DNA of 64,000 nucleotides from a virus. Its lineage: Duplodnaviria > Caudoviricetes. The notes below the pieces were generated by a model. That model did no database searches. It saw only the letters and a list, made by a program, of their open reading frames with translations, and was not told where the DNA came from. Shown piece after piece: positions 22,397 through 43,767 of the stretch. Position numbers and translations under genes: made by a program. Positions within the stretch are counted from its first letter, which is position 1; the number at the start of each line of letters is the position of its first letter. Where the stretch lies: positions 96,001 through 160,000 of IMG/VR virus record IMGVR_UViG_3300012983_000001. One strand, given 5' to 3'.

Positions 22397-22410
22397 AATA
22401 CCTCCTATTT

Positions 22411-25400
22411 CTACATAAGTTCTGCAAACTTATTAGCAAGCCAGTTATCTGTTACACCACTAGTGTCAGCCTGACTATATACTGATGTATTGCCACCACC
22501 AGACATACCGATAAGCTTTGCATTATTCATGTCGTTAATATAATTTTGTGTTTTAGCTGAAACGTTGAAGTTAAAACCAGATGCTCTATCATGATACACT
22601 GTCGCTTTTTTAGACATCGGAGCCTGTTGTGGTCTAGGGCTTCGTGTTTCTGGCTGATTGTTATTATTGTTTCTTGCTGGTGTTAATGGTGATTGAGCTT
22701 TGTCATTATGTAATAAATTATTTGCAACGCCTAACGCAGCCATAGAAGCAACAGCAATACCAATAGTTTTCTTTGGCATTTTACCGAAAGCATCTTTGGT
22801 ACTTTGCCAGAACTGTCCAGAAACAGTTTTCTTTTTAACGTGTCTTTCTGCGGCACGTTTAACTGCTTCTTGTACTTGTTCTGGAGTGCGGGTTTCTAAT
22901 GCGTCATGTACTGCACCAATAGCTTTTTTGTGTTCCGCAATTAAGTCATTGACTAATGGTGTGTTTTTCAATCCGCTATGAGCTGATGTTTGTGCAACAG
23001 GACGATAATTTGATAACGCATTTAACGTATTTGTTAATGCATATGCTTCGGTATGGCTCATTGTCTTAATAGATTTTTGAGCTTCTATACCAGCCTGCTG
23101 TATCTCTTGAATATCAGTCATTACCAGAGAATCGAAACGTTTACCAATGAAATCACCAAAGCCTACAATAGAATCATCAGAAGGTTGTTTCCATCCAAAG
23201 AATGCATCCATCTGCGCTTCTGATTGAAATAATGCATAAATGTCTTGTTGTGTTTTTTTGATAACTGGCTGGTTCTCTGCCTTTAACTTTGTAATAATCT
23301 CATCAGCTCGTTGCATGGAATTATCAACAATGTCTTGTAATGACTTAAGTTCATCATCAGAAACGCCTTGATGACGTAAGCCATCTAATTCCACTTGTAC
23401 GTTAGCAAAACTGCCTTCAATGTTTCTTCGCTCTTCTATTATATCATAGGTGTTCTTCTTTAAAAAGTCTAAAGTTTCTTGATATGTTTTTTTATCGAAA
23501 AAATCCATTAACTGTGCTTCGGATGCATAACGTTCAAGGTTTTCTTCACTACCGAAACGTTGAATTAATTCCTTACGAAGAATTGTATCATATTCTTCGT
23601 CAAAGATAAATCCCCTTTCTTCGTCTCTACTTCTCGGATTGTCTGCAATCTGTTTATTGATTGATTTAATCAATTCTCCAGCGGACGATGGGTCTTTTCT
23701 GGTATCAAAGAAACCTTTGCTTACAGCATAATCATATGTCTGAGCTAATCTGTTAATGTTTGCATAGATAACTGGAGTGGTACGGCCCGCAGTTTTACTA
23801 CCAATAAGAAGCTGATTTACTCCCTGCCATGCAGAACCATATTTAGCTAAACCATTTCTTGTTTCTCCAATTTTCTTAAACGACTGAGGTAATTCAGTAA
23901 GCACCTTGCCTTCATCATCTAATAAGACACTATTAAGTGTTTTTTCGAATTTACGTTTTGTTAATCCACTTGATGTTCTTTCCTGTAATGATATAGACTC
24001 CATGTAGTCTTGAATATTAACACCATGGGATAATACGCTTTCAAACGTTCTTTTGGTACTAAAAGGCTTACCGATTTCTTTACCTGTTGATAAATCTATT
24101 TCGACGAAACGGTTATTGCCTTTATAGATATAGCTTTTATCTTGCCATCTATCAAGAGTGCCAATATCAAAATAAATATCGTTAACGGTATATGGGTCTT
24201 TTGGAGCACTGAAGGAATTAGCAAAGATATCAAGTACATTGTAAAAACCTGTACCAACATATCGTTCGGATAACTTATCAAGACCTTGTTTATTCAGTTC
24301 TTCAATAGTATGGTAAATAGATTCATCCAGAGACCCATGAAGCAACCTGTCGGCGTAATATTTATGGAAATCTGGAATTTCTTTTTGTACATCCAACAGT
24401 CTACGCAATGTTCTTAAATTCTCCAGGTTTGCTGTTTTCTGACCTGCATCTTTTGCTGACTGTATTGCACGATTGAAATCTTCCAGAGTACTATTGACAA
24501 CTAAACGTGCCATGTCATCTAACTCTCTATCAGATGCTTTAAACAATCCAGAATTGACCGCTTCAAGTATATTACGAATACCCTTCATATTGCTTTCTGG
24601 AGAATGCTTACTGTTACCAAATAACAGCGACATACCTGTAGAATAACGTGTTGTTTTTGCAATTCTTAAACCGTCATCTGCGTGCTTTACGTCGATACTC
24701 TTCTGCTCTGTTTCACTAAAGAAACCACCAGCTTTAGAAAGCATATTACTCAAACTTACATAAGTATCATTAAGTAATTGTTTTTGAGATAACGCTAATT
24801 TTGGGTCGGTCATTGCAGTAAGCAATGCATTTCTCATAGTGTAGTTTGGAGTAGAAATACTACCAATGTTCTTTTTACGGAAACGAGATGCAATAGAAGC
24901 AATAATCGAGTCTTCATCTGTCATGGTATTAAACTTCATGTGTACAAATGTATCATGCATTTGCTTTGATGTTTCCGCAGCAAAGATTTGAGCATCGCTA
25001 AGATTATCAATAGAGGATACACGAATGCTGTTATCTTTAGCCCATGCCATAATAGCACTTTCATACTCTTTAGGTTTCATTTTTTTAAGCATTGCTGCAT
25101 ATTGTCTGGTACTTGCATTTGGGTCATCTGAACCAAAAAGACCAATATCATTAACAAGCTCTGCTAATAAAGAACGAGACTCTCGTGCCGCAAAACGATT
25201 ATAAATTTCAGTAGCAGTATCAAAAACTTGCGTTCCATTAATCTTTGTATCTGTTCTGATGATACTCATACCGTCTGTCAGTATAGACAAGAATTGTTTA
25301 TCGCCATCGAAGTCAACATTATTTAAGGACGAGAATACAGCACTAGAACCACGTACTTGTGTACCAGTTAAAGTAGTATCAAGAATTACTCTTGTCATAG

Positions 25401-28400
25401 CTTGGCTTCGGAATGTTGGATAACGAGTAATTTCACCGAAAGTACCAACTTCAGAAAGATACATTGTGCCGATTTCTTCATCGAACACTTTAAGAATACT
25501 ACCTTGTTCGCTATTAATAATAGCTTGATTCAATGCTTTAATGTCTAATCCGCCAGGTGTTTGGCCATATCGTCTAGCTACAAAATCATTTAACTGACCT
25601 GTAATGGATTTCTTGGAATCAATGTGCAATCCTTCAATGTTCAGTGCATTTAATTTTCTAGCTATTGTTGTTTTACGACCAGCAAATTTGTGATGATATT
25701 CTTTGATACGTTCAAACTTATAGTTCCCAGTTTCCCAGTCGCTGTACGCTTGTAATCCTACGGCACCAACACTAATGCCTTGACGCTCAAAGGCTTCTTT
25801 ACTTATGGCAACAGCTAAACCATATTGCTTTTTGCCATCTATCATGACTTCAGCGGCCTTACGAAGATTGTCGTTACTACTTAAGGACATCAGTTCTGAA
25901 TAATAACTATCATCTTCTAGTATACGTTTTGAAATCTTTGACAGCTCTTTTTTAAGTGGCGCATATACTTCATCTTCTAATTCTTTAATGACTGCTTTAT
26001 TGTCAGGATTGATTTTAAGAATGCGTTCTAATCTATCTTTACGCTTCTTTAAAGCCTTAAGCTCAGGTGTCATCATTGCTTTAACTAAAGGAGATGCTTC
26101 ATCCTGTGCAAGTAATTCTTGAGACGTTGGCATGATATATTGCTGGAATGCTTTATAAACGTCTCCTTGCTTATCCAAGAAACCGAGTTGCTTAGATAAA
26201 CTAGTCATTGTGGAAGAATATGCTGCACTTAAAGCTTGTTTTATACCACCCTGTTTTGTGTATCTACTAGGGTTTGTTGTAATGTCAATTAATTGATTTA
26301 CGAAGTGTGAAACTGTACTTTGTTGACTCTGGAAGTATGTCTTGTCGGTTGCGCCAGTAAATACAGTCTGAATCGGAATCATTACGCCTTTAAAGTCACG
26401 ATATCCGAATTTATCTTTAACGGAAAACGAAACGTCGTTTAGGTCAATAAAGATACTATATGATTTATTATCAAGGTTTACACCAGACTTACGAGCGGCT
26501 TTCTTTAAGAAATCACTAGGCTTGCCATCTACGAAGAAAATAGAATTACGTAATTCCTTAGTAGTCATACCGCCTTTTAAACGGCTCGATTCATCAATTA
26601 AGTCGTTAATGTTAATATTAACAATATTCTTACCTTCAGCGCCGTATTTTTCTGGATTGTAATAATACATCAGTGATTCAACAATGCCTTTAGCGCTACG
26701 CTGAATTTCTGATTTACCATTTAATAAATGTATTCTATTTGCATTTTTCTGTTGACCGTATACATTGATGTATTGCTGTAAGTCTGTCTGGTCATTTTGA
26801 GCCAATCCAGTTCCTTGTGCATTATAATGTTCAGAGTAATATCTTAAGGTATCTGCCCATTCATTGTCGATTGGGTCTATGCCATCACCGCCCATTTGCA
26901 TACCACGAGTACGAATACCTTGTTCAATTCTTTGGTCATATACCATTCTGGTACCCATGTGTTCATTCATACTTTGTCTTTGAATACGAGCATTATACGT
27001 GCCAGTGGCATACATTTCTTCAATTTCTTCTACGATTGATTCGTTGATACTTGTGGATAAGATGGTATTATTCTTAATCTGGTCATATAACGTCTCAATA
27101 GCATAGCTAAAATTGTGAGCGTCGCTACTTGATGAAATAATATGTCCATCAATAAACTGAAACTTGTTTATGCCACGGAATGCTGGATTAGCTTCAGTAA
27201 TCATTCTATTCAAATGATTAACTAATGCTTGTCCCTGACCACGTTCTGTATACTGAGAAGTAATAGTATTCCATAAGGAATGGGTAGAAACAATATTACC
27301 ATGCTTCTCAAGGCCAAGATTTGCCATTACCACAGCGCCATCAGATACTTTTGCAAATAAGCTATTAGCAACACGTAATGCTTTTTGGCTGTCTGTAATG
27401 CCAGTGTACTCCATAAACTTTGTCATGTTTATACTGTGTACAGTACCTTTTTCTGCACCGTTAATCATGATTTTTGTATCAGCAATATCGCCATGTAATG
27501 GAATTACACTACTAGAACCCCAATCAAAGAATTCATCAATGTTTTCGCGTGTAAATACTGTATCAGGACCGTCATAGTAAATAAGCGTGTCATCTGGCGT
27601 TATTGCAATAGGAGTATCTCGTGTTACTACAGTTCCGTCGTGCGCTAAACGAGCAAGCATACTTTTACTACGCGCTTCGTCGACAATATCTTTGTCGAAC
27701 ATAATCTTTTTACCATCTTTAGCTTGGAATAATTCTTGTTCATTTAAACCAGGCGCAATGAATATCTTACCCTCATGTAAAGACATGAATTCTTGTTCAA
27801 AATATTCAACAGCTTTACCGTAACGAGATTCTGAAATGCCCAACTGTTTTGCCATTGCGACGTCTTCTTCAAGTTCTTGATAACGCATGATTAAATCGTA
27901 ATCATTGATTTGCTTTACTCTTGCAATCATTGAACGTTCTCTTAATGCGTAATCTTCTCCATCTATTGGCTGATATCCAGATGCCGCTAATGCCATTTTA
28001 TCTTTGTATTCTTTTTCTGTAATAACGTTAGTACCAACACGTAATGCATGTTCTTCAAAGCCGATGAATTTTTTCATATCGAATCTGCTTGGTGAGAACC
28101 ACATGCTATTATTTTGCTGATGATAAGTAGGTCTTAATGTACTGTATAAACTTGCCGCATCGTTGTAGTCGCCAGGACGTACATATGAAACAATGCCTTT
28201 TTCACTTGCAGATTCTGATAATACTTGGTTAATACCTTTGGTTTGAATTTTCTTTAATGCCTCACCTACGGACTGGTGGAAGGTATGAGTCGTATCTCGT
28301 TCTACGGTTTCAGTAATAATATCAAAAATGTTCTTATCAAATTCTGGTCCAGAGATAATGCCCTGTAAAGAAATATCACTAGCGACAGTACCAGTAAACA

Positions 28401-31400
28401 ATCGTTTCATGAAGAATTCTTTAAACTCAGTATTATTAGCAACTCGCATTAAGTATTCGGTTGCATGGCGTCCTTCTGTAATCGCTAAACCAGATGCTTT
28501 ACCGAATGCTTCAACAACTTTTTGTGCGGTATTCAGGTTATCTGCTGAATCAATAGCTACAGCGGCCTTGAAGATAGAATACAATCCTTCACTCACTTTT
28601 GCTTCATACGCCTGAATAAAATCACTTGGCGTGAATTCTGCAATACGACGTACAACTTTTTTGCCATCTACTTCAGTAATGTAGCCTCTATAAGATGCGG
28701 AGGCAGATAAATCATCCAAATATCTATTTTGAGCACGACGTACAGCATCTGTTGCTGCTCTGTATTCTCCATGTAACGTATGTTCAATAGCATGGCCATT
28801 TGCCATTCTAATGGTAGATAAGAATCCATACTCACCACTATTATAGTATGCCGCAAGTGTTCCATCACTAAAATCACGAACTTGTAATTCTGGAATGATA
28901 ATCTTTTCCATTGAACCAGTGTGTCCTTGTGTGATGGTACGTAATGTACCTTCGCTTAACTGGTATTCGTTAATTTTAGGTATCTCAATAAATGATGCAT
29001 AATCACTGATAGATTCTGCACCAACAACTGCACTATGATACTGTTCTGGGTCCAATAAAGTATAACGATTAGTAAAGTCAAATTTACCATCCATAAGAGC
29101 AGTATAAAATCTATTCATGTCCTGTTCTCTGGTCATAAACAGATATGCATTACCGTCTTCTGGTTGCGCAATAAATGCACGCAAACCCTGGTCAAGATAG
29201 TTGTTAATGGCATAACTAGTTGGCTCGCCATTGCTTGTTGTCTTATTGAATAATTCTATAAGTAACTTAGCTTCATCACTATTTGGAGCAATGTTAAGTT
29301 TAGAAGCAATGGTGTTCATGTGATTTTCAAATGCTTCTCGATTTGCATAACGACTGCTAACATAGAAAGTTTCTGGTCTCTCAGCGATTGCATCACGAAT
29401 AATGTCTTGCATATCGGTTTTTGATGCCTCATAGACTTCACTTAGTTTCAGCGTCTTTTTACCTCTTGGTTTCTTGTATTGAATAATTGCGTCACTTTCA
29501 AGGTCCACACCTAACAAATGCATGTTTTTACGTTTGCCACTTGCTGCAAAAACATTATCAATACTTTGAGTTGCACTTGTATATTTGTCCATATATCCAG
29601 ATATTGCATAACCGAGGTCTTGCGAAATGCTATACAATTCATCCGCAGGCAAAGAGGTCATTTGTTGATAAGCTCGTTGGAATGCCTCTTCGTCAAGTAT
29701 GCCGCGTTTATTAAGGTCTGTTAAAATAGTCTGCGCTTCGCTAATATCAAGACCTTGAAAGATTCTATTGATATCATATGTTATTGTATTTGCACTGTAA
29801 CCATTGATTCTGCGAATACTACCATCTGGCATTTCCACATCAATACCAAGAGCGTCAGACATTACTGCATATGATTCTTTAGCTGAATATCTTTCGTATT
29901 TGTTATCAAGATAAGCCATTGCTTGTGTGTATGCTCTCTGTACATCAATAGTTTTATCCATGTTGTTTGCATTACCATGCGTGGCTTGTACTGTTTCAAC
30001 GATTTGACGAAGTAATGGTCTTTCATTTTGAAGCTTATCATACATACCCACGAAAGCCTGGGCCTGATAATGACTTCTAATTGGTACAGGACTAGGGTTT
30101 TCTGCATTGTAATGTGTTTCAACATATCGCATTAACTCTCTAGCGGATTCACTAGTTGGCTTAATATCAAAACGTTCTTCAGCAGGTAGACTATCTAAAT
30201 CATCCATGAATTTTAAGTATTGTTGTAACGTTTCAAAACCATAGATATTGTCTTTACCATCTAAACCAACATTAACTGGGTCAATTAACTTACTAAATTC
30301 TCTACGACCAAAATCTCTATAATGAAATGCTTGTTGTTTTATCGCATCACCAGAAGTTACTTGTGCGCTAGTAAAAATACTTGAGTTATGCACTAATGTT
30401 TCTAATGCTTCTGTTTCAGAACCATACACTAAAGAGACCTTAGTAGTTCCATCGTCTACAAGGTTATCAAGCGTTAAAACATATTTGGTTTCGCCATCCA
30501 GCTCTACATAATGAGAATGTTCTTTATCAATGGTCCAATATTCATTTGTAAAAGAATAATTAGGCACAGGACTACCGTCAATAATGGCCATGTCTTGCGC
30601 ATGTTTGTGCTGTAAAGAGCCTCTATGAATTAAAAATATACTATCGTCAATGGTACTTTGAGATTTATATGAATCTGCAAAATCTTGTAATTGCTTAGTA
30701 CCATCCAGGACTTCTTGCATACGAATATCCAATAAGCGTCCTTCATTATCAACATCGGCATCACCTCGATGTATCTGTGACGCATTAATGCGTGTTACTC
30801 GTAATTGTTCATCTACAGAAGCACCTGCTCTAGTACCATATGTATTTTCAAAATATGAATTCACTGACTGCGAATTACTAGCTGCCAATGCTCTTGCTGA
30901 ATAGATAACGTCTAATATACTACCTCTAACAGAAGCGATTTCACTTGCATCAACACCTAATACTTTTGCTGTATTTACGAGTGCGTCTATATCAAATTGA
31001 CTATTTGCACCAAAAAGTACAGCGTTATCGTCATGAATAGCATCAGTAATTTCACCAATCAACATCGGTAATAGTTCATTTGGCTTTGCAACTTGATATG
31101 CATTATGTAAATTTTTGATACCTGCCCTAAATGCTGTGGCTGTACGAGTTTCTGCTGATAATTCACCAGCTACTTTAAAAGTTCTGCCATCAACTACTTC
31201 ATTACGGATAGCATCGCGACCACTATACATGCTTATACGTTTTAACGTAGTTTGCTCTGCATTATCACGCTCATTAAGACCATCCCAGCCAACTTTTTCA
31301 AACTTGTCAACTAAGCTTAATAAATAATCTCTTTGGGCATCATTAATACCAAAAATATACGAACGACCTGTGCGTGTTACATTACCACTATTATCATAAA

Positions 31401-31815
31401 TACGTGTACCAATCGCAAGCTCAGTTATACCAAACTGAGCTGCGTCTGTACCAGGTTTAGTAATATTACCAAATGTTTCTAAGTCGAAACCTAATGCACG
31501 TCCGCCATTTTGACGAATCTGTGCAAATTTTTGCCATTCATCCATTGCATCAAGGGTTTGCAAAACAGCCTTGTTGTCCCTGGAATCAAGCATTCTAAAT
31601 AAACCATCTAGTGGGAAAGAAGAAGGTTGTTTAGAATGGTTCCATATTTGATTAAAGTTTGCTTCAAGACGTTCAGTACGGGCATTCCAGAAATCATCGT
31701 ATGTACCATTACCTTGTTCTACCCATTCGTTCGAAGTAAGACCATTAATTTTAAATACATTGTTTTGTCTTGCCCATATATCATGTAATCTAAAATTAAA
31801 TCCATAGACGTCCAT
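22411..31815 (-). CDS. Giant protein at the tape-measure locus: N-terminal DEDDh exonuclease plus single-chain two-barrel RNA polymerase (putative virion RNAP), 3134 aa
   Basis: GFDLETFG (D111/E113), GANSQFD (D275), HRGDAD (H349/D354); LHEGKIF (E1348); TKIMINGAEKGTV (K1448/K1456); TRYPTF (R2131); NVDFDGD (D2168/D2170/D2172); C-terminal hydrophobic IGIAVASMAALGVA. Confidence 0.8.
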   Translation of the reverse strand: MDVYGFNFRLHDIWARQNNVFKINGLTSNEWVEQGNGTYDDFWNARTERLEANFNQIWNHSKQPSSFPLDGLFRMLDSRDNKAVLQTLDAMDEWQKFAQIRQNGGRALGFDLETFGNITKPGTDAAQFGITELAIGTRIYDNSGNVTRTGRSYIFGINDAQRDYLLSLVDKFEKVGWDGLNERDNAEQTTLKRISMYSGRDAIRNEVVDGRTFKVAGELSAETRTATAFRAGIKNLHNAYQVAKPNELLPMLIGEITDAIHDDNAVLFGANSQFDIDALVNTAKVLGVDASEIASVRGSILDVIYSARALAASNSQSVNSYFENTYGTRAGASVDEQLRVTRINASQIHRGDADVDNEGRLLDIRMQEVLDGTKQLQDFADSYKSQSTIDDSIFLIHRGSLQHKHAQDMAIIDGSPVPNYSFTNEYWTIDKEHSHYVELDGETKYVLTLDNLVDDGTTKVSLVYGSETEALETLVHNSSIFTSAQVTSGDAIKQQAFHYRDFGRREFSKLIDPVNVGLDGKDNIYGFETLQQYLKFMDDLDSLPAEERFDIKPTSESARELMRYVETHYNAENPSPVPIRSHYQAQAFVGMYDKLQNERPLLRQIVETVQATHGNANNMDKTIDVQRAYTQAMAYLDNKYERYSAKESYAVMSDALGIDVEMPDGSIRRINGYSANTITYDINRIFQGLDISEAQTILTDLNKRGILDEEAFQRAYQQMTSLPADELYSISQDLGYAISGYMDKYTSATQSIDNVFAASGKRKNMHLLGVDLESDAIIQYKKPRGKKTLKLSEVYEASKTDMQDIIRDAIAERPETFYVSSRYANREAFENHMNTIASKLNIAPNSDEAKLLIELFNKTTSNGEPTSYAINNYLDQGLRAFIAQPEDGNAYLFMTREQDMNRFYTALMDGKFDFTNRYTLLDPEQYHSAVVGAESISDYASFIEIPKINEYQLSEGTLRTITQGHTGSMEKIIIPELQVRDFSDGTLAAYYNSGEYGFLSTIRMANGHAIEHTLHGEYRAATDAVRRAQNRYLDDLSASASYRGYITEVDGKKVVRRIAEFTPSDFIQAYEAKVSEGLYSIFKAAVAIDSADNLNTAQKVVEAFGKASGLAITEGRHATEYLMRVANNTEFKEFFMKRLFTGTVASDISLQGIISGPEFDKNIFDIITETVERDTTHTFHQSVGEALKKIQTKGINQVLSESASEKGIVSYVRPGDYNDAASLYSTLRPTYHQQNNSMWFSPSRFDMKKFIGFEEHALRVGTNVITEKEYKDKMALAASGYQPIDGEDYALRERSMIARVKQINDYDLIMRYQELEEDVAMAKQLGISESRYGKAVEYFEQEFMSLHEGKIFIAPGLNEQELFQAKDGKKIMFDKDIVDEARSKSMLARLAHDGTVVTRDTPIAITPDDTLIYYDGPDTVFTRENIDEFFDWGSSSVIPLHGDIADTKIMINGAEKGTVHSINMTKFMEYTGITDSQKALRVANSLFAKVSDGAVVMANLGLEKHGNIVSTHSLWNTITSQYTERGQGQALVNHLNRMITEANPAFRGINKFQFIDGHIISSSSDAHNFSYAIETLYDQIKNNTILSTSINESIVEEIEEMYATGTYNARIQRQSMNEHMGTRMVYDQRIEQGIRTRGMQMGGDGIDPIDNEWADTLRYYSEHYNAQGTGLAQNDQTDLQQYINVYGQQKNANRIHLLNGKSEIQRSAKGIVESLMYYYNPEKYGAEGKNIVNININDLIDESSRLKGGMTTKELRNSIFFVDGKPSDFLKKAARKSGVNLDNKSYSIFIDLNDVSFSVKDKFGYRDFKGVMIPIQTVFTGATDKTYFQSQQSTVSHFVNQLIDITTNPSRYTKQGGIKQALSAAYSSTMTSLSKQLGFLDKQGDVYKAFQQYIMPTSQELLAQDEASPLVKAMMTPELKALKKRKDRLERILKINPDNKAVIKELEDEVYAPLKKELSKISKRILEDDSYYSELMSLSSNDNLRKAAEVMIDGKKQYGLAVAISKEAFERQGISVGAVGLQAYSDWETGNYKFERIKEYHHKFAGRKTTIARKLNALNIEGLHIDSKKSITGQLNDFVARRYGQTPGGLDIKALNQAIINSEQGSILKVFDEEIGTMYLSEVGTFGEITRYPTFRSQAMTRVILDTTLTGTQVRGSSAVFSSLNNVDFDGDKQFLSILTDGMSIIRTDTKINGTQVFDTATEIYNRFAARESRSLLAELVNDIGLFGSDDPNASTRQYAAMLKKMKPKEYESAIMAWAKDNSIRVSSIDNLSDAQIFAAETSKQMHDTFVHMKFNTMTDEDSIIASIASRFRKKNIGSISTPNYTMRNALLTAMTDPKLALSQKQLLNDTYVSLSNMLSKAGGFFSETEQKSIDVKHADDGLRIAKTTRYSTGMSLLFGNSKHSPESNMKGIRNILEAVNSGLFKASDRELDDMARLVVNSTLEDFNRAIQSAKDAGQKTANLENLRTLRRLLDVQKEIPDFHKYYADRLLHGSLDESIYHTIEELNKQGLDKLSERYVGTGFYNVLDIFANSFSAPKDPYTVNDIYFDIGTLDRWQDKSYIYKGNNRFVEIDLSTGKEIGKPFSTKRTFESVLSHGVNIQDYMESISLQERTSSGLTKRKFEKTLNSVLLDDEGKVLTELPQSFKKIGETRNGLAKYGSAWQGVNQLLIGSKTAGRTTPVIYANINRLAQTYDYAVSKGFFDTRKDPSSAGELIKSINKQIADNPRSRDEERGFIFDEEYDTILRKELIQRFGSEENLERYASEAQLMDFFDKKTYQETLDFLKKNTYDIIEERRNIEGSFANVQVELDGLRHQGVSDDELKSLQDIVDNSMQRADEIITKLKAENQPVIKKTQQDIYALFQSEAQMDAFFGWKQPSDDSIVGFGDFIGKRFDSLVMTDIQEIQQAGIEAQKSIKTMSHTEAYALTNTLNALSNYRPVAQTSAHSGLKNTPLVNDLIAEHKKAIGAVHDALETRTPEQVQEAVKRAAERHVKKKTVSGQFWQSTKDAFGKMPKKTIGIAVASMAALGVANNLLHNDKAQSPLTPARNNNNNQPETRSPRPQQAPMSKKATVYHDRASGFNFNVSAKTQNYINDMNNAKLIGMSGGGNTSVYSQADTSGVTDNWLANKFAELM

Positions 31816-31833
31816 TCTAAATTCCCTCCTGTT

Positions 31834-34800
31834 TTATATATCTAATCCTGCTATCTGCTGTGATACATCATTACGAGCATCTCTTTGAATATACAAGGAT
31901 GTTTTAGTGCCATATGAAGACTGCATAAAACTTGTTTGTATATCGTTATAACCAGCCCTACCAAGAATCTGATTGAGTCTAATCTGTACTTGTCGAGGAT
32001 TATTGGTTGCATTTATCATAGGGATTGGGATGTTTACTGCATCAGCTTGTTCCTCATCGCTTTCCCAAATGTCAAACTCACCAGGGTCAAGATTATTTTG
32101 ATGTACTAATTTTACTTTAACGTCTTCAATATTAGTAGCTTCATTCCATCCTATCCATGAAGCATCTGGTAATCCGTGCGTCTGGAAGTATTCCTGTAAG
32201 CTAGGTTTTTTATCTACTGGCATTCCCCATGCAGACTGTAAAGCTCTTCGTAAATAACTAGGAGCAATACGTAATATCTTTTGTTTCTCTTCCTCAGGAG
32301 CATCCATAAAGTGCTTAAAATACTGTCGTTCTTTCTTTGGAAGAGCACTCATGATATTTACTAAGGAGTCACCAGGTTCATAACCATACATGGTTTTGTC
32401 CGCTGCTTGTTTATATTCAATGGCACGCATAGCATTTAATGGAAGTTTTGTTACTTTACGTTGGCTTTGTAACTCACTAAGCTCTTGATTGATTGCTCGA
32501 ATTGTTTCTTGCTTGGTCATTGATTGCTCAACATACTTTGGTTCTCCATACTTAAAATTATACCTGTCTCTATGTTTGAAATCAAGCTTAACTTTTCGTT
32601 TGAAATCAATAAGTTCCCGTTGCCTTAATGAATTAGTTACACCTTGAGCTTCATGAGATTTCATAAAACGTTCTACATCAAAGTTATTTTCCCTTTTAGC
32701 TTTGGTTTTATATTGCTCATATAGACGCATATTTTTTACGTACTTTAATACATCTACATATTCATTGAGCTTTTCTTGCTCACGTCTACGTTTTGGACGC
32801 CAATCTCGTTCTTTATCAGAGCCAGCGGCAAAGGCAATCTTTCCAATAGCTGGAAGACTTGCACCTACTGTAGCACCTACAATTTTACCAAATGCAGTTT
32901 TGCCAAATAAACTTCCGATAAAACCTCCCATAAGAATACCGCCAAGTCCAAGAAATCTATTGTTTGCGATATTTTCTTCAACGTGTGGAATTAACATGTC
33001 TCTTACTGGATTATTCCATGACTGAAAATCTTTGCCGTATACTTCACGTTTACGATATTGCTCATATGGCGAACGCACTTGCATAAATTTACTACCAATG
33101 AACGGGATGCTACCAACAATATCATGAGTTACAGTTTCCATAGCAGAACCAAATGCAATCTCTCCTTGTGAATATCTGGCACGTATGCCCGCTGGAGAAT
33201 TATCGTCTTCTTTTTCTTTTGCATGACCTTGCTCTAATAATACTCTATTAACATTCTTTCCTTTAGAATGAACAACAGCACGAATAGACCGCGTGGAATC
33301 TTTAGAATATTTATTGCGCTCATCTGCATCATAAGAAATACGAATTTTAGCACCAGGTTTTACATAACTACGTATTGCTTGACGAGCTGCTTCATTCTTG
33401 GTACGTTTATCATCATACATTTCGCTTTCTGATGCAGATACGTTAATTCCAGCAAATTTAATTGCGTGACGTTTACCGTATTCTTTAGTAATAATTGTAT
33501 TGTTGTCGATAATTTTTGCAACAGTAACAGTTTCGGATTTAAGATTTGACGTTTTGAACTTATACGGATACACACGTAATGGTTCTTTCTGTTGAGTAAC
33601 TCTATCTCGAATCTGTGATACTTCTTCTTGCTCTTCGGTAGATAGCTTTTCCATACTTAACTGTGCAGAAACATCTCTGAATTCTTGTGAATACGGAGCA
33701 ACATCAGCAAGAATTCTAAATCTATCTAATGTACTATATAACTCACCACGACCAAGTTTGCCAGTTTCAATAGCATCTCTGATAGTCTGACGAGCACCAT
33801 ATACATTATTCAAAGTAGTTTCTAATTCTTTCTGACTGTAATCAAAACCAACAGTATACGTATTCATTGGGTTTTCTTTATCTACATAATGAATGTATCC
33901 TTTTGGTGTTCCTGTTGCCCACAAGTAGTAATTTGTTTGACGCATGTGATGTGTCAAAGGCTTTTCTGCCTTACGTATTTCTTCAAGCTTTTTAGCTGAT
34001 GTAGATTTAATATCTACGATTGCTGTTCCAGTTGGAGATGTAACGTCATGTACTTTAGCATCGTACCAGCCAACAATGCCATTACGTTTATCTTCTATTT
34101 TGCCTTCTACATCAATAGCAAGTCCTGACTGTAACCATGATTGCTGAATTTCTTTATGAATACGATTACCAGTATCAAGTGTTTCTTGCTCAAAAGCACT
34201 TTTATATTTATCGGCTTTAAGCATGTGCTTGATAATGTAATCTTGTTCATATCCGATAGAAGAAGAGCCAATATTAAAATCCATTAAGCCTTTGATACCA
34301 TGTAATCTTTCGTATCCCTCACCAGGTAATCTTTCTTCACCATTATCTATTTTAGAGTAAGGGTCGCCGTGCTTAAAATCTGTAAAGTAATTGGAACCAG
34401 GCATCCATGAAGGCATGGTATTTCTAATTGGATTGATGTATTCGACATTATTATTTCGTTTAGGAACAAAACGACGTGTAATTTCAGATAATCCTCCGCC
34501 TAAACCACCAAGATTAGCTTCCCAGAAATCATTATTGACACTGTATGCATACCCTGAATTTTCAATTACTCTTGCATTTTGATTAGCTTCGCCTGTAATA
34601 AAATTTTGCACTGCAAAACCTTTAAGACCTGCAATGTCAGCCAGCCAGTTGTATTGCTCGCCCATGCCATATACAAACGCATTATCAATAGATGGATTGT
34701 CATTACCAACAGGAATACCAGGTCCCATAAAATCATTGATTTCTACTTGCTGATTGGTGCCAAGAATTTTATTGATACTGTACATTTGTAAGTCTTGGTT

Positions 34801-37800
34801 AACATTATATAAGTTCATTTCGTCAGGAACGTCAACTACATTCAATGCACCAGAAGGAGTAGAGTACACTTCATAAGGATTATCGTATCTATCATAGGTG
34901 CGCACTGGCAATATACTTCTTTGTTGAAAAGTAATACCTGCTTTGTCTATAAAGGATTTTGATGTAATCTGCTTAGCATGATAAGCAGATGTTGTTAATG
35001 CATTCTGGTATATTGCATTGGAAACCGCTGTCTTTTGTTGCATTGTATTAAACGTATTGATATCCAATGCAGAATTATCCATACGTCCCGTAGTTAATAA
35101 TGGACTTGGTAACTCATCTAATGGATTGATTTGTAATCCGTTATTCCAGTATTCATGATGCATTCTTCTTGGCGGACTAATCACAGTACCAATAGTAGAG
35201 CTAAATGCTGGACCAATAATTGGTATATTTTGTCCTACAGGAGCAGTCTGTAAATACGGCCTATCGTGATAATGTTTCTTATCATAATGATTACGGTCAA
35301 AGATAAAATAGTTTAACGGAGCCAACGGATTTACAGGATTAGGATACCATGTATTATTGTAATACTCTTGACGAGAGCCCCATTTGGAATCACTGAATTC
35401 TACATCTGCCTCTACACGACGATAAATATTTGGCCTGAAATACATGATTTTACCACCAGTCCATGGTGTATTACCAGAGCCCCAATATCGTCCCTTACGT
35501 ACAGGGTCATATCCATTTTCAATGTATTCTCGTCGCTCTTCTGCTGTTTGAGTCAAACCAAGTCCGTAATCATGGATACCTAATTGGTCTGCGCCAGGTA
35601 CCATTTCTCCAAGAAACTTAAAGACATCAGTAGCCCCCACTAAGTCCATGGCATTATGAGCACCAACATCTATTGGCCTTACAACATTACGCATGAGATA
35701 TTTACTAATATTGTCACGATTACCTGTTTCGTCTCCACCACCAAAAAACGGTTCTGATAAATAGTTAATAACACCAGGTATCTGTGTTAATGCAAATACA
35801 GGTAATGCTCTTTTAAGAAGCAAATTACCAGCTAATGCCATTGATGAGTTTTTGCTATCTATGCTAAGACCTAATAACTTTGAAGCACCACCTAAACCTT
35901 CTGATAACTGATTAAATACTGTCCACAATATACCAGACCGTTCGGTAAAAAATTCGCTCATAACATCGTCGCCATCTGGAACTTTAGTACGTCCTGCAAC
36001 AAATTGCCTTACAAACCCTTGCAGCTCATACAGTGCATCTTCTGTATTGTTACTCTTAAAAGAGTTATATGCATTTCTTAATTTAAAGCCCTCTTTAGTT
36101 GTGGTATACATTCTAGGGATTTTACCATTATCCATGGTCCCTGCAAAGCCAGTACCAAATGCGCTTTTATACGTACCAGGTTCAATAGCTCTTATCATTT
36201 CTTCCATGTCATTATATTCGAAACCTGTTGTTTGAAATAATGGCCTGTCTGTTATCCATGAGATTGCTCTGTCTGTGATATTGTCTATACTTGTTGCTGT
36301 ATCAAGCGTTTGTCTCGCATCACTAGCTTCTGGATGAAATTCTTGATATCCCATATCAAGCATGTTACCAATACGATGTTTAGCTTTTTGAAACGTAGAC
36401 AATTCGCCGTAACCGTGTTCACGTAAATACTCAACGTATTCTTCAGTTGTTTGTTTGACAGGCTCACCCATACTTAATCCTGCCATTTGTCTTGACGCAT
36501 TTGTTAATGGAGTCAAGCCATAGTGTTCGTCAGCATAAGTAATGTCATGTAATTTCAAACCAGATGCGATTTCTTGTAGCTTACCTTCTCCATCTGTTAC
36601 AAAAGCATTGCCATTGATAACTGCTACTGATTTATCTTGAAACTCTTCACCAAAAGTTTCGGCCAACCAATCACCGATTCTTTTCTGACCGCCAATTCTT
36701 GTAATGTTTGGGTCATATTGACCACTACTAATTAAGCCCATGAGAGGCTTAACTCTACCTGCTTTATCAAATCCTAAAAGTGTTTTAAATGGATTGAATT
36801 GCACTAGTGGCAACTTAAAATCATTTGCTAAAGAATGTTGGAAGCCAACAATATTCTCTTTAGTCATTCTGTAGTCAAGTATACGACCAGCTTCGTCAAT
36901 ACGCATGTCGTTATCTATGATAATATTTCTCCAGTCTTGTTGCCATGCACTAGCATTTCTTGGTCCATATCCATGGAAACCTTCATTAAAGAAATCGGTA
37001 ACTTCGTTCAATAATGCATCATATTTATTATCTACAATGTCGCTTCTGCGCACAAGACGCCGTATACCATCCTGTTGAACAACATCTGCAACATCGCCTA
37101 ATGTCAAACGTTTATATCCAGATTCACGCAATTCTTGTACTACTTGACGTTCGGAAAGAGTCATAAAGCGCATAAATTCCTCCATGGCTTTATGGGTATA
37201 AACAACTCTATCACTGCTTGCAAATTTCTCTAAATGCTTCTCTAAATTAGCCATTTCTTGCATACGATAATGCAGTTCAGTATTACGGGTGTTCTGTCGT
37301 ATTTTTTGCAGACCAGCCTGGTTTTCTTGTATCATACGATGCAACAGTTGCATATCTTGCACTGTGCCATTCATGAGCTCTCTAACGTTGTGGAAGTTCG
37401 TTAAACGAGCACTTGACATGCTCATTGCATCTTGATAGATATCATAAAATAAACTAGTGTCTCTCTGTCTAAATAAACTTAGAGCAGGCGCATTATGTCT
37501 CTGTACCTTAGAACGATTTAGCTGTTCTGGTGTTAAGTGCTTTAATTGTGACCATTGCTTAATTGTAGACATAGCGACAGCTGCTCTATCTGTACCTTCG
37601 CGTGCGACAGTATCAGCAAGCTCTAAGAGTGGTTTCATAATTGGTTTTAGAATACCACTCTTATATAAACCATATCCACCTAAGGCCGCCAAACCAAGAC
37701 CTATTGTATTATACAAAACACCATTATCACTAGTGTCTTGATAATCCTGATAAGTCTGATTAGTCTCTCCTATTGTTCTTTGCTCTAATCTGTTGTCTAA

Positions 37801-37806
37801 TGACAC
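31834..37806 (-). CDS. Giant tape-measure-like/ejected protein with PD-(D/E)XK nuclease and SNase-like domains (1990 aa)
   Basis: GTG start with GAGGTGG RBS; directly follows the tail chaperones. GNRIHKEIQ...E...GWYDA...IVDIKST...QTNYY; VAKIIDNNT...FAGIN...NVNRVLLEQGHA; N- and C-terminal Gly-rich hydrophobic segments. Confidence 0.75.
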   Translation of the reverse strand: MSLDNRLEQRTIGETNQTYQDYQDTSDNGVLYNTIGLGLAALGGYGLYKSGILKPIMKPLLELADTVAREGTDRAAVAMSTIKQWSQLKHLTPEQLNRSKVQRHNAPALSLFRQRDTSLFYDIYQDAMSMSSARLTNFHNVRELMNGTVQDMQLLHRMIQENQAGLQKIRQNTRNTELHYRMQEMANLEKHLEKFASSDRVVYTHKAMEEFMRFMTLSERQVVQELRESGYKRLTLGDVADVVQQDGIRRLVRRSDIVDNKYDALLNEVTDFFNEGFHGYGPRNASAWQQDWRNIIIDNDMRIDEAGRILDYRMTKENIVGFQHSLANDFKLPLVQFNPFKTLLGFDKAGRVKPLMGLISSGQYDPNITRIGGQKRIGDWLAETFGEEFQDKSVAVINGNAFVTDGEGKLQEIASGLKLHDITYADEHYGLTPLTNASRQMAGLSMGEPVKQTTEEYVEYLREHGYGELSTFQKAKHRIGNMLDMGYQEFHPEASDARQTLDTATSIDNITDRAISWITDRPLFQTTGFEYNDMEEMIRAIEPGTYKSAFGTGFAGTMDNGKIPRMYTTTKEGFKLRNAYNSFKSNNTEDALYELQGFVRQFVAGRTKVPDGDDVMSEFFTERSGILWTVFNQLSEGLGGASKLLGLSIDSKNSSMALAGNLLLKRALPVFALTQIPGVINYLSEPFFGGGDETGNRDNISKYLMRNVVRPIDVGAHNAMDLVGATDVFKFLGEMVPGADQLGIHDYGLGLTQTAEERREYIENGYDPVRKGRYWGSGNTPWTGGKIMYFRPNIYRRVEADVEFSDSKWGSRQEYYNNTWYPNPVNPLAPLNYFIFDRNHYDKKHYHDRPYLQTAPVGQNIPIIGPAFSSTIGTVISPPRRMHHEYWNNGLQINPLDELPSPLLTTGRMDNSALDINTFNTMQQKTAVSNAIYQNALTTSAYHAKQITSKSFIDKAGITFQQRSILPVRTYDRYDNPYEVYSTPSGALNVVDVPDEMNLYNVNQDLQMYSINKILGTNQQVEINDFMGPGIPVGNDNPSIDNAFVYGMGEQYNWLADIAGLKGFAVQNFITGEANQNARVIENSGYAYSVNNDFWEANLGGLGGGLSEITRRFVPKRNNNVEYINPIRNTMPSWMPGSNYFTDFKHGDPYSKIDNGEERLPGEGYERLHGIKGLMDFNIGSSSIGYEQDYIIKHMLKADKYKSAFEQETLDTGNRIHKEIQQSWLQSGLAIDVEGKIEDKRNGIVGWYDAKVHDVTSPTGTAIVDIKSTSAKKLEEIRKAEKPLTHHMRQTNYYLWATGTPKGYIHYVDKENPMNTYTVGFDYSQKELETTLNNVYGARQTIRDAIETGKLGRGELYSTLDRFRILADVAPYSQEFRDVSAQLSMEKLSTEEQEEVSQIRDRVTQQKEPLRVYPYKFKTSNLKSETVTVAKIIDNNTIITKEYGKRHAIKFAGINVSASESEMYDDKRTKNEAARQAIRSYVKPGAKIRISYDADERNKYSKDSTRSIRAVVHSKGKNVNRVLLEQGHAKEKEDDNSPAGIRARYSQGEIAFGSAMETVTHDIVGSIPFIGSKFMQVRSPYEQYRKREVYGKDFQSWNNPVRDMLIPHVEENIANNRFLGLGGILMGGFIGSLFGKTAFGKIVGATVGASLPAIGKIAFAAGSDKERDWRPKRRREQEKLNEYVDVLKYVKNMRLYEQYKTKAKRENNFDVERFMKSHEAQGVTNSLRQRELIDFKRKVKLDFKHRDRYNFKYGEPKYVEQSMTKQETIRAINQELSELQSQRKVTKLPLNAMRAIEYKQAADKTMYGYEPGDSLVNIMSALPKKERQYFKHFMDAPEEEKQKILRIAPSYLRRALQSAWGMPVDKKPSLQEYFQTHGLPDASWIGWNEATNIEDVKVKLVHQNNLDPGEFDIWESDEEQADAVNIPIPMINATNNPRQVQIRLNQILGRAGYNDIQTSFMQSSYGTKTSLYIQRDARNDVSQQIAGLDI

Positions 37807-38488
37807 TTAATACCACCTCATCTTTCCAGTGTGTTCCACCAATCAACGGGAAGTCTAATACTTCTTTTTTGAAGAGCTGTTGTAGTTCATCTGAGAAGTA
37901 ATACATTGGGTCAATGCCATTGTTCTGTAATTCTTTAATAAATTCTTGATTTTCAGAATGGATTTGTTCCATTTCTTGCATATACTCTTCAGTCTGGTCC
38001 TGAATATGCCAGTCAAAGCCTTTTAACTCAGCAACCTTTTCTGCTCGTACAGTCATGTGCATAAGCTTGCTCCATGTCCACTCTTCCATTTCTTCGTAAG
38101 TGTATTCTGGTATAAATGCTTTAATCAAATCCATGCATTGAATTTCAAGATTCGTATATTCTTTCATCTGCCTGTATTCTGCAAGTACATCTTGAATATT
38201 TTTAAGGCCAGAAGTAGTTTCTATGACATCAGCTATGTATTCATTCAAACCAGCAAAACCACTAGTTTCGAATTCATAGTCTTCTGGATAGACACAACAT
38301 GTATTACAGATTGCGTCTTCAATATCCATTTGTGATGCGCAACTTTTAAGTATATATTTATACTCTTTGCGCGTTAACGTTCTAAATACAAAGTCCGTAT
38401 CTAAAAAGCGGACATAAATAATCTTATGTCCGCTGTAAAGGTCTTTGTAGTAATTTAGTAATGCAACATCTACTTTATTATCAGCCAT
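37760..38488 (-). CDS. Tail assembly chaperone-like protein B (242 aa)
   Basis: FVFRTLTRKEYK...ICNTCCVYP..Y.F....G....ADVI...SG; paralogue of 38501-39052; lies between the tube genes and the giant proteins. Confidence 0.65.
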   Translation of the reverse strand: MADNKVDVALLNYYKDLYSGHKIIYVRFLDTDFVFRTLTRKEYKYILKSCASQMDIEDAICNTCCVYPEDYEFETSGFAGLNEYIADVIETTSGLKNIQDVLAEYRQMKEYTNLEIQCMDLIKAFIPEYTYEEMEEWTWSKLMHMTVRAEKVAELKGFDWHIQDQTEEYMQEMEQIHSENQEFIKELQNNGIDPMYYFSDELQQLFKKEVLDFPLIGGTHWKDEVVLSVIRQQIRAKNNRRD

Positions 38489-38500
38489 GACAAGTTCCTC

Positions 38501-39052
38501 CTAAAGCACCTCTATGCCATATTCTTTTGTAAAGCCTGAGTTTTCCATGATGATTTGTGCCAGAGTACTAGGATAGCCACTATCTTCTGCTGCCATCTTC
38601 TTGAAATCGTAATTGTATGGCCACAATACACATGTATGACAGATAATTTCTTCTCGGTATAAAGCATCAATGTTTTCAATGGCGACGATTTGTTTGTACT
38701 CAAATCTGTTTAATGTTCTAAAAACAAAATGTCTATCTAAAATCTGAGTATGGAAGACTTTTTCTTTGGTGTATTGTTTCTTCCATAAGTCTACCTGGGA
38801 AATACCAGGGCCTCCTTCAAACAGTGGCGTATCATTTGGGTCAATGAAATATGTTTCTTCTGGCTCAGGCTCATGCTGTATTGCATACTCCTGTGTTTGT
38901 GCTTGAGGTTCATAAGAAACTTCAGGATAATCATTGTCCATCTCTGCTCTCATTTCTGCGTAAATGTCCTCCGTTTGACCTGCCTGTTTCTGTTGAGTTT
39001 CTAACTTTAGTTTTGCTGCGTTCATTAAATCGTTAATGTTGTGGTCTTCCAT
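38501..39052 (-). CDS. Tail assembly chaperone-like protein A (183 aa)
   Basis: VDLWKKQY...FVFRTLNRFEYKQI...ICHTCVLWP..YDF....GYPSTLAQIIMENSGF; acidic N-terminus. Confidence 0.65.
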   Translation of the reverse strand: MEDHNINDLMNAAKLKLETQQKQAGQTEDIYAEMRAEMDNDYPEVSYEPQAQTQEYAIQHEPEPEETYFIDPNDTPLFEGGPGISQVDLWKKQYTKEKVFHTQILDRHFVFRTLNRFEYKQIVAIENIDALYREEIICHTCVLWPYNYDFKKMAAEDSGYPSTLAQIIMENSGFTKEYGIEVL

Positions 39053-42694: not shown

Positions 42695-42726
42695 GATGAT
42701 TCTCTCCTTTCACATTATTCAAATAA

Positions 42727-42755
42727 ATTATAGCATATACAACAAAATGAGCCAA
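42727..42755 (-). promoter_or_regulatory. sigmaA-type promoter: -35 TTGGCT, 17-nt spacer, extended -10 TG-C-TATAAT
   Basis: Minus strand TTGGCT CATTTTGTTGTATATGC TATAAT, about 30 nt upstream of the 560-aa start. Confidence 0.6.
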
Positions 42756-42791
42756 GCCCTTTTTTTGACTTGACTCACTTTGTTTATGCTA
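42731..42791 (-). terminator. Probable intrinsic terminator after the tail tube gene
   Basis: Minus strand AACAAAGTGAGTCAAG-loop-CTTGGCTCATTTTGTT (16-bp stem with G:U pairs), U-rich 3' arm, outer TAGCATA/TATGCTA extension. Confidence 0.6.
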
Positions 42792-42816
42792 AAAATCTGA
42801 TTTGATTGAATTAGCA

Positions 42817-43701: not shown

Positions 43702-43729
43702 AATATTTTCCTCCTTGTTTTCTTTATTT

Positions 43730-43755
43730 AGGTAGGGACATTGCTGTCCCTACCT
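43730..43755 (-). promoter_or_regulatory. Perfect 11-bp hairpin with GCAA (GNRA) tetraloop between sheath and tube genes
   Basis: Minus strand AGGTAGGGACA-GCAA-TGTCCCTACCT followed by an A-rich tract and the tube RBS; no U tract. Confidence 0.7.
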
Positions 43756-43767
43756 GAGATTATTCAA

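Follow-up and report, generated by a model that had tools for sequence, protein, structure and literature searches.

A predicted two-barrel RNA polymerase and exonuclease on a giant tape-measure-slot protein of a contractile-tailed jumbo phage, with a nuclease-bearing companion

The stretch of DNA analysed here, called the window in the following, comprises 64,000 nucleotides (nt) and represents bases 96001-160000 of a 208,433-bp virus record of IMG/VR which is rated complete (IMGVR_UViG_3300012983_000001; Caudoviricetes). All long open reading frames (ORFs) of the window are carried by the minus strand, and its tail module, as called from PHROG and Pfam scans, runs in the order sheath, two tube paralogues, a pair of chaperones, P0002, P0001, hub and baseplate genes including Baseplate_J. 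P0002 and P0001 are the products of two adjoining giant genes: P0002 (1990 amino acids, aa; GTG start) is encoded at 31834-37806 (minus strand) and was recognized by tblastn as a homologue of gp145 of Bacillus phage 0305phi8-36, while P0001 (3134 aa, from the ORF translation) is encoded at 22411-31815 (minus strand) and takes the place of gp146 of that phage. The two proteins jointly occupy the tape-measure slot between chaperones and hub. P0001 is read here as a candidate for an ejected virion protein which combines a putative exonuclease with a predicted RNA polymerase, and P0002 as its nuclease-bearing companion. The phage itself is a jumbo phage of the 0305phi8-36 lineage and, because sheath, tube and Baseplate_J genes are present, a contractile-tailed myophage; these genes also ruled out a crAss-like podovirus, which had been suspected from the giant DFDGD-containing protein.

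The centre of P0001 (residues 1380-2420; 24556-27678, minus strand) is predicted to form a single-chain two-barrel RNA polymerase core, as judged from its predicted fold and from invariant motifs, which were scored for P0001 across 24 homologues sharing 23-71% identity. The beta-like double-psi barrel (27406-27618, minus strand) lies inside the range aligned with QDE-1 and contains the invariant residues K1448, E1455 and K1456, the two lysines representing a basic pair spaced by 8 residues, as known from the barrel in the beta subunit of cellular polymerases. The beta'-like double-psi barrel (25261-25458, minus strand), assigned by motif conservation, contains R2131-Y-P2133 placed 35 residues ahead of the DFDGD motif at 2168-2172 (nt 25300-25314), with R2131, P2133, D2168, D2170, G2171 and D2172 being invariant, and thus mirrors the beta' motif of cellular polymerases, NRxPxLHR...NADFDGD. 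An AlphaFold2 model of residues 1380-2420 is confident (predicted local distance difference test, pLDDT, 81; predicted template modelling score, pTM, 0.72), and its overall fold resembles those of solved two-barrel polymerases. The best 50 Foldseek matches in the PDB are all bacterial RNA polymerase chains, nearly all of them beta', although these matches are weak (best E 2e-3), and the closest structural neighbours among the matches listed are QDE-1 and plant RDR2. The centre of P0001 is accordingly modelled as a single-chain two-barrel RNA polymerase of the QDE-1/YonO class, its activity being predicted. The members of the QDE-1, RDR2 and YonO class, as well as ORF099 of 0305phi8-36, differ from it as free enzymes of about 800-1400 aa rather than parts of a 3134-aa tail protein, and a relationship of the P0001 polymerase to any of them was not detected at the sequence level.

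At this level the P0001 family appears closed: P0001 gave no match in Pfam, PHROGs, the PDB (phmmer and profile searches) or a tblastn search of 50,697 phage records, and the family consists of 34 near-length homologues and 56 clusters at 50% identity. Full-length members measure about 3100-4200 aa, and the few shorter entries (210-2730 aa) probably represent fragments; the contigs concerned reach lengths of about 223 kb. A hidden Markov model (HMM) of the family matches two proteins of cultured phages, gp034 of KLEB27-3 (2434 aa, annotated as "structural protein"; E 2e-18) and GAKEdson_0920 of Edson (2515 aa; E 8e-10). In both cases, N-terminal region, beta' barrel and C-terminal tail are matched in colinear order, and both proteins carry the motif N-R-Y-P-T...A-D-(Y/H)-D-G-D, in KLEB27-3 in the form ADYDGD. 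A second, free two-barrel polymerase candidate of 1285 aa is encoded outside the window at 193154-197011 of the record (plus strand), about 65 kb away in a plus-strand block which diverges from the structural genes near 186 kb. It contains R-S-P...D-H-D-G-D and is 27% identical to ORF099 of 0305phi8-36, a "hypothetical DNA-directed RNA polymerase" which was noted as a QDE-1-family polymerase by Hardies et al. (PMC2147016) and Iyer et al. An hhalign comparison of the polymerase region of P0001 with this free polymerase of the same phage showed no relationship. The N-terminus of the free candidate resembles a small Arc/zinc-ribbon-like domain.

The N-terminal region of P0001 (residues ~100-360; 30736-31518, minus strand) contains invariant motifs of a DEDDh (DnaQ-like) 3'-5' exonuclease. 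ExoI (D111-x-E113), ExoII (N271-x3-D275) and ExoIII (H349-x4-D354) are conserved without exception and follow each other in the DEDDh order, and it is on these motifs that we assign the region as a putative DEDDh exonuclease. Matches to DEDD families are weak and each was obtained with one member of the family (Rv2179c-like, 0.0013; CAF1, 0.016; RNase_T, 0.064), and further weak leads are given by an exonuclease match in the PDB (E 0.29) and by atlas scores of 0.86-0.87. All three motifs are also present in the homologue from Edson and in the corresponding protein of Moorella phage MTATph1, and at least ExoI and ExoII in that of KLEB27-3. In gp146 of 0305phi8-36, DEDDh-like motifs are represented by ExoI and an H-x4-D. 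Since gp146 and the Moorella protein keep DEDDh-like motifs without a DxDxD motif, it appears to be the exonuclease which the slot proteins of the clade have in common, with the polymerase occurring only in some branches.

Conservation within P0001 is highest outside its enzyme domains, in the last 130 residues, where column conservation reaches 0.61-0.76 compared to about 0.4 elsewhere. This part contains a predicted Gly/Ala-rich membrane segment about 100 aa from the C-terminus (residues 3017-3035; 22711-22767, minus strand; Kyte-Doolittle value 1.6), which has an analogue in gp146 and is followed by the invariant H3036, with A3027 and G3029 being invariant within it. The alignment and column conservation further define a C-terminal tail (residues 3040-3134; 22414-22698, minus strand) ending with D-N-W-L-x-N-K-F-A-E-L. 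A W-(L/M)-x3-F ending is common to the slot proteins of 0305phi8-36 (gp146), Edson, KLEB27-3 and the Moorella phage, where CDS0031 shows the form W-W-x3-I. This C-terminal module is the only part in which gp146 aligns with P0001 (BLAST; hhalign over the C-terminal 115 residues, E 0.011 at low probability), and it has likewise been reported that only the last 60 residues of gp146 are alignable with its prophage counterparts (Hardies et al., PMC2147016). Co-folding of the gp27-like region of the hub (P0003, residues 1120-1710) with the P0001 tail 3040-3134 yielded a score of 0.00, which speaks neither for nor against binding. P0001 as a whole diverges fast: a 211,039-bp contig shows 73% identity to the window for P0002 and 62% for the hub versus 29% for P0001, and such divergence has been remarked to be typical of tape measures (PMC2147016). 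Among contigs of 209-218 kb, the slot protein is 25-31% identical and its two neighbours 50-73%, representing a three-fold divergence gap between adjacent genes.

The companion P0002 belongs to a family with 197 database homologues, whose intein-free full-length members range from 1972 to 2104 aa. Residues 660-1170 (34297-35829, minus strand) form a very highly conserved core with dozens of invariant residues, for which Pfam gave nothing useful at E values up to 10, and an atlas search with residues 650-1180 returned only unnamed viral clusters below 0.9. Several homologues (P0101, P0136, P0196, P0202 and P0203) contain one or two inteins with LAGLIDADG or Intein_splicing matches in Pfam, which were mapped by BLAST to residues 779/780 and 1151 of P0002 (about 35467-35472 and 34351-34356 of the window) and fall exactly inside the invariant motifs G-S-G-N|T and D-P-Y|S of the core. 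Inteins usually occupy critical sites of essential proteins, and their location in these motifs therefore suggests that the core is functionally critical. An AlphaFold2 model of residues 1040-1600 shows two confident domains, preceded by a poorly folded portion at residues 1040-1163 (pLDDT ~35), which is the only part of the conserved core inside this model.

The first of these domains (residues 1169-1409; 33580-34302, minus strand) is identified by motifs, PHROG matches and predicted fold as a PD-(D/E)XK nuclease of the lambda-Exo/RecE/Cas4 type. It matches phrog_1706 (CRISPR/Cas-associated; E 3e-10) and phrog_434 (RecE-like; E 4e-5), and its model (pLDDT ~90) retrieves LHK-Exo (E 2.7e-7), Cas4 SSO0001 (2e-6) and lambda exonuclease (3e-6) by Foldseek, within a range of E 2.7e-7 to 1e-5 at a probability of 1.00. 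The nuclease motifs are intact and read G-x-Y-D1249, D1265-I-K1267 and Q1290-x2-Y-Y: G-x-Y-D1249, I1266-K1267, N1292 and Y1293 are invariant in 15 metagenomic homologues plus gp145, and D1265, Q1290 and Y1294 are kept in more than 90%, D1265 being replaced by E in one. Both the fold and the motifs G-x-x-D, (D/E)-x-K and Q-x3-Y are thus shared with lambda exonuclease, RecE and Cas4, which differ, however, in being small free enzymes made after infection or by the host, whereas the domain of P0002 resides inside a 1990-aa protein with a homologue in virions. The second domain (residues 1421-1539; 33190-33546, minus strand) adopts a staphylococcal nuclease (SNase; OB) fold in the model (Foldseek E 1.3e-6, template modelling score 0.66), and a P0002 profile matched the PDB with E 0.009 over SNase residues 4-111. 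Its catalytic and calcium-binding residues are not kept, D21 being replaced by the invariant N1436 and D40 by N, H, R or T throughout the family, while the equivalent of E43 is A in this phage and E in distant members and that of R35 is K. Because of the lost metal-binding residues, the domain is probably inactive as a catalyst, and it probably binds nucleic acid instead. Further downstream, residues 1618-1665 (32812-32955, minus strand) represent a Gly/Ala-rich, glycine-zipper-like hydrophobic segment (Kyte-Doolittle window value 1.54) with invariant G1631, G1635, G1640 and G1644 and faint Gly-zipper matches in Pfam.

A view on these domains largely supports the initial annotation, which had read PD-(D/E)XK, SNase-like, DEDDh and RNA polymerase modules from the two ORFs. 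The polymerase is backed by motifs and fold, the DEDDh region by motifs, the PD-(D/E)XK domain by motifs, PHROG matches and fold, and the SNase-like module by its fold, though not by its catalytic residues. The count of three nuclease-type domains has therefore to be reduced to two plausibly active ones, as the SNase domain lacks the equivalents of D21 and D40 family-wide and of E43 in this phage. Gly/Ala-rich hydrophobic segments had been placed near a terminus of both proteins; this applies well to P0001 and only loosely to P0002, where segment 1618-1665 lies 330 aa from the C-terminus and a weaker hydrophobic segment is found at residues ~30-56 of the N-terminus. The absence of tape-measure-type repeats was reproduced by self-BLAST of P0001 and P0002, which revealed no internal repeats, and neither protein has a tape-measure match in Pfam or PHROGs. 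Tape measures are often unrecognizable by sequence, and a missing family match or missing repeats therefore count weakly.

The arrangement of these genes reproduces that of 0305phi8-36, where gp143 and gp144 ("tail chaperonins") are followed by gp145, by gp146 ("hypothetical tape measure protein") and by gp147 (Thomas et al., 2007; Hardies et al., 2007, PMC2147016), P0002 and the hub being clearly homologous to gp145 and gp147, respectively. The tblastn identity between P0002 and gp145 amounts to 39% over residues 662-1985, and further matches of P0002 are giant proteins of Moorella phage MTATph1 and of three Bacillus phages, Edson, WH1 and KLEB27-3. The counterparts of gp143 and gp144 are two tail assembly chaperones: the first of this split G/GT-like pair (183 aa; 38501-39052, minus strand) matches phrog_29362 (E 2e-37) and the second (242 aa; 37760-38488, minus strand) phrog_29368 (E 1e-30). 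The pair is paralogous, since the C-terminal half of the first protein (residues 91-172) matches the N-terminus of phrog_29368, and the N-terminus of the second matches phrog_29362; the second chaperone gene overlaps the start of the P0002 gene by 47 nt. The hub P0003 (1925 aa; 16619-22396, minus strand), a member of the gp147/T4 gp27 family, matches phrog_20474 (E 2e-252) and gp147 in BLASTP (E 1e-65). In 0305phi8-36, gp143/gp144 have been read as a split form of lambda G/GT, gp147 has been shown to be an enlarged T4 gp27-type hub, and gp146 has been assigned as tape measure by correlation with tail length, the chaperones being accepted as separated by one gene from this tape-measure candidate (Hardies et al., 2007, PMC2147016). 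This comparative paper makes no mention of an enzyme content of gp145 or gp146. Both proteins are annotated as found in 0305phi8-36 virions by mass spectrometry. Common to gp146 and P0001 are the slot, the motifs of the exonuclease, the membrane segment near the C-terminus and the W-L-x3-F tail, but gp146 lacks the DxDxD motif and any detectable similarity to the polymerase region.

The same order, i.e. chaperone pair, a protein of about 2000 aa, slot protein and a hub of about 1950-2320 aa, is present in three distant metagenomic relatives (P0001 homologues 23-25% identical), Edson, KLEB27-3 and MTATph1. The slot proteins of the metagenomic relatives measure about 3150-3590 aa and those of the Bacillus phages 2430-2540 aa. 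The MTATph1 locus (17870-25226) represents a transposase-disrupted form, in which the slot gene is apparently split by the insertion, CDS0027 carrying the exonuclease motifs and CDS0031 the membrane segment and tail. The claim of the initial annotation that two adjacent giant ORFs fill the slot between chaperones and hub is thus correct in view of the coordinates, the PHROG cross-matches and the 0305phi8-36 arrangement reproduced by the window, and in the synteny check it had called for, each relative examined was seen to carry both giant genes together with the hub.

An earlier, experimentally established case of a tape measure fused to a virion-delivered polymerase is gp96 of Thermus phage P23-45, a tape measure of 5002 aa with an active N-terminal two-barrel virion polymerase containing DFDGD, which transcribes the pre-early genes including that for a second, non-virion polymerase and has been proposed to be extended in the tail channel and to work at the tape-measure pore (Chaban et al., Nat Commun 2024, PMC10770324). 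P0001 resembles gp96 as a giant slot protein with a two-barrel DFDGD polymerase upstream of membrane segments, and each of the two genomes encodes a further two-barrel polymerase of non-virion type at another place, which in the present case is a candidate. The two systems differ in that P23-45 is a siphovirus with a non-contractile tail and the present phage has a contractile one, that the polymerase is N-terminal in gp96 (DFDGD at 779 of 5002) and central in P0001 (2168 of 3134), and that gp96 contains a metallopeptidase domain and no exonuclease, whereas P0001 carries an N-terminal DEDDh-type exonuclease region and has a giant nuclease-bearing partner. No sequence similarity between P0001 and gp96 was detected, and gp96 and gp66 of the crAss-like phages are absent among the structural matches listed for P0001, which says nothing firm for a model of this size. 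The accessible part of the supplementary survey of Chaban et al. and of the other literature searched does not mention the P0001 family. Further parallels are provided by gp50 of N4 and gp66 of crAss-like phage phi14:2, proteins of 2000-3500 aa which are ejected with the DNA and start early transcription, yet these podoviruses have no tape measure and store the polymerase in the head. The polymerase of N4 gp50 has a T7-like fold and that of phi14:2 gp66 is of the two-barrel type. We know of no DEDDh exonuclease fused to either of them, and to our knowledge tape-measure-fused virion polymerases are confined to a single group of Thermus siphoviruses. The principle is therefore already established by P23-45, and the designation of the locus as an undescribed system in the initial annotation goes too far; new are the contractile tail, the unrelated sequence family, the added exonuclease and the nuclease-bearing partner.

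Based on these data, we consider it the better-supported expectation, held with some reserve, that the slot protein P0001 is an ejected virion protein with exonuclease and polymerase modules, accompanied by the nuclease-bearing P0002. P0001 would be stored partly unfolded in the tail lumen, by analogy with gp96, with its conserved C-terminal tail presumably docked in the baseplate hub, and would leave through the tail at infection. On ejection it may refold at a membrane channel and transcribe the first phage genes, probably including that of the free QDE-1-like polymerase, while the far more conserved P0002 would bring in a lambda-Exo/Cas4-type nuclease, an apparently dead SNase fold and glycine-rich membrane segments. 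This reading is supported by the synteny, the invariant exonuclease motifs, the conserved C-terminal tail, the fast divergence of P0001 and the P23-45 precedent, as well as by the agreement between motifs and fold of the P0002 nuclease, the mass-spectrometric detection of gp145 and gp146 in virions and the annotation of the KLEB27-3 homologue as structural. It is also supported by the failure to find another large tape-measure-like ORF: the scanned ORFs of at least 600 aa of the genome, which did not include two of 622 and 638 aa, gave no match to a tape-measure family beyond a weak one of the hub to phrog_167 (E 1.5e-05), so that, this marginal case aside, the separate canonical tape measure named in the initial annotation as contrary evidence did not turn up among them.

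Several observations weigh against this proposal. In its folded state, the polymerase core of about 1000 aa exceeds the width of a tail-tube lumen, and storage there would therefore require P0001 to be unfolded or extended. The exonuclease motifs of gp146 without DxDxD imply that the polymerase is not essential to the slot, and a k-mer count in 61 upstream regions gave no shared early promoter, only Shine-Dalgarno sequences. For this phage and its family, both the occurrence in virions and the enzyme activities are deduced from the genes. Finally, it is P0002 and not P0001 which directly follows the chaperones and shows the narrower length range (1972-2104 versus 3105-3644 aa), so that P0002 could be the true ruler. 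One of the two giant proteins is probably the tape measure, but the data do not say which, and the proposed replacement of a conventional tape measure by the enzyme cassette is thus overstated.

If P0002 and its gp145 family were the real tape measure, P0001 might act apart from it as an ejected pilot protein which is kept in the head or at the tail tip, as in N4 and the crAss-like phages. We regard this as unlikely, although it is the alternative with the most to recommend it: next to its place behind the chaperones with the 47-nt overlap and its near-constant length, P0002 contains, like many tape measures, hydrophobic segments of the glycine-zipper type, one portion of it is not folded with confidence although extremely conserved, and the globular model of the P0001 polymerase suits packaging in the head better than a 4-nm lumen. 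On the other hand, the adjacency to the chaperones loses weight by the "one gene removed" arrangement considered by Hardies et al. (PMC2147016), which may be cited for either protein. P0002 is also unusually conserved for a tape measure, with 72-83% identity compared to 26-71% for P0001, and possesses well-folded enzyme domains of its own, whereas the C-terminal membrane segment and tail found across the clade are carried by P0001 and shared with gp146, which was assigned as tape measure by tail length, and P23-45 provides an instance of a polymerase inside a tape measure. Somewhat further from what we would expect is an elaborate version of the favoured reading, in which both giants act as one ejected machine: they would thread the lumen with one of them as ruler, their glycine-rich segments would insert into the host membrane, and the lambda-Exo-type nuclease and the DEDDh exonuclease would trim the end of the entering genome to a single-stranded DNA template for the QDE-1-like polymerase, thereby coupling entry, processing and transcription; an exonuclease-bearing tape measure would then be ancestral to the 0305phi8-36 clade and the polymerase a later insertion. 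The nick, resect and transcribe cooperation and the membrane anchoring suggested in the initial annotation are likewise inferences.

It appears improbable that the cassette serves purposes other than early phage transcription, such as end resection for recombination or circularization, RNA synthesis on single-stranded DNA, priming, or degradation of host or defence nucleic acids. Such functions would agree with QDE-1 and RDR2 as the closest structural neighbours listed, since these enzymes copy single-stranded templates, with a 5'-3' resecting-type nuclease fold and a 3'-5' exonuclease accompanying the polymerase, with the retention of the exonuclease by two proteins lacking the polymerase, gp146 and that of the Moorella phage, and with the separate polymerase for transcription which the genome already has. 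Yet P23-45 likewise employs two polymerases with a division of labour, the characterized phage virion polymerases (N4, phiKZ/AR9, crAss-like and P23-45) all transcribe early genes, and the activities assumed for these other purposes are read from sequence and fold. Hardly credible, by comparison, is the assumption that the giant proteins are not delivered at all, acting as tail scaffolds during assembly or as non-virion enzymes encoded in the tail module. It may draw on the "structural protein" label of KLEB27-3 gp034, which has no stated basis in the record, and on the gene-based assignment of the proteins to virions of this phage, but it conflicts with the presence of gp145 and gp146 in 0305phi8-36 virions, with the fixed position between chaperones and hub in all relatives, and with the terminal membrane segments and conserved C-terminal tail, which fit ejected tail proteins.

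The observations of the initial annotation are borne out apart from the activity of the SNase domain, and its interpretation is supported in part. The locus probably extends the delivery trick of one Thermus phage group to a second lineage which includes cultured Bacillus phages, suggesting that the same polymerase-in-tape-measure solution arose in an unrelated sequence family of contractile-tailed jumbo phages, with an exonuclease as an addition to the polymerase chain and a conserved nuclease protein encoded by the adjacent gene. If true, this would explain how 0305phi8-36-like phages start transcription, and it proposes functions for three proteins which rank among the largest of those labelled "virion structural" or "hypothetical" in these genomes. 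As homologues are carried by two cultured Bacillus phages, Edson and KLEB27-3, the idea can be put to a direct test.

The other genes of the tail module were assigned by the PHROG and Pfam scans. The window contains two sheath-like genes at 47064-48659 and 43768-46185, the latter taken as the sheath, and two tube paralogues at 42817-43701 and 41012-42694 (minus strand), the second of which matches the tube family phrog_9206/34314 with its N-terminus and is fused to repeated endolysin-type cell-wall-binding modules; relatives carry PG_binding_1 or Amidase_3 at this position. Besides a gp27/gpD-like region, the hub contains NlpC/P60, phage lysozyme and Hydrolase_2 domains (Pfam) as well as glycine-zipper membrane segments, and it is the glycine-zipper membrane insertion at residues 1372-1437 which weakly matches the tape-measure PHROG 167. 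A fourth giant gene (1890 aa; 1008-6680, minus strand) matches the virion structural families phrog_32678 and phrog_21285.

As to the host, the ribosome-binding sites are strong A-A-G-G-A-G-G sequences as in Bacillota hosts. A search of genome contigs with the P0002 alignment gave only two matches, too few to name a host, on contigs binned with metagenome-assembled genomes of Acidobacteriaceae; both encode a fragment of the P0002 nuclease region with 51-54% identity and may represent phage contigs binned with their host or mis-binned ones. What the record lists as a "direct terminal repeat" is a 123-bp exact overlap of its ends, which is more likely an artefact of assembly circularization than a physical terminal redundancy. 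The G+C content of the sheath and tube genes (42001-46000) amounts to 0.41-0.44, compared to 0.33-0.39 in the remaining window.

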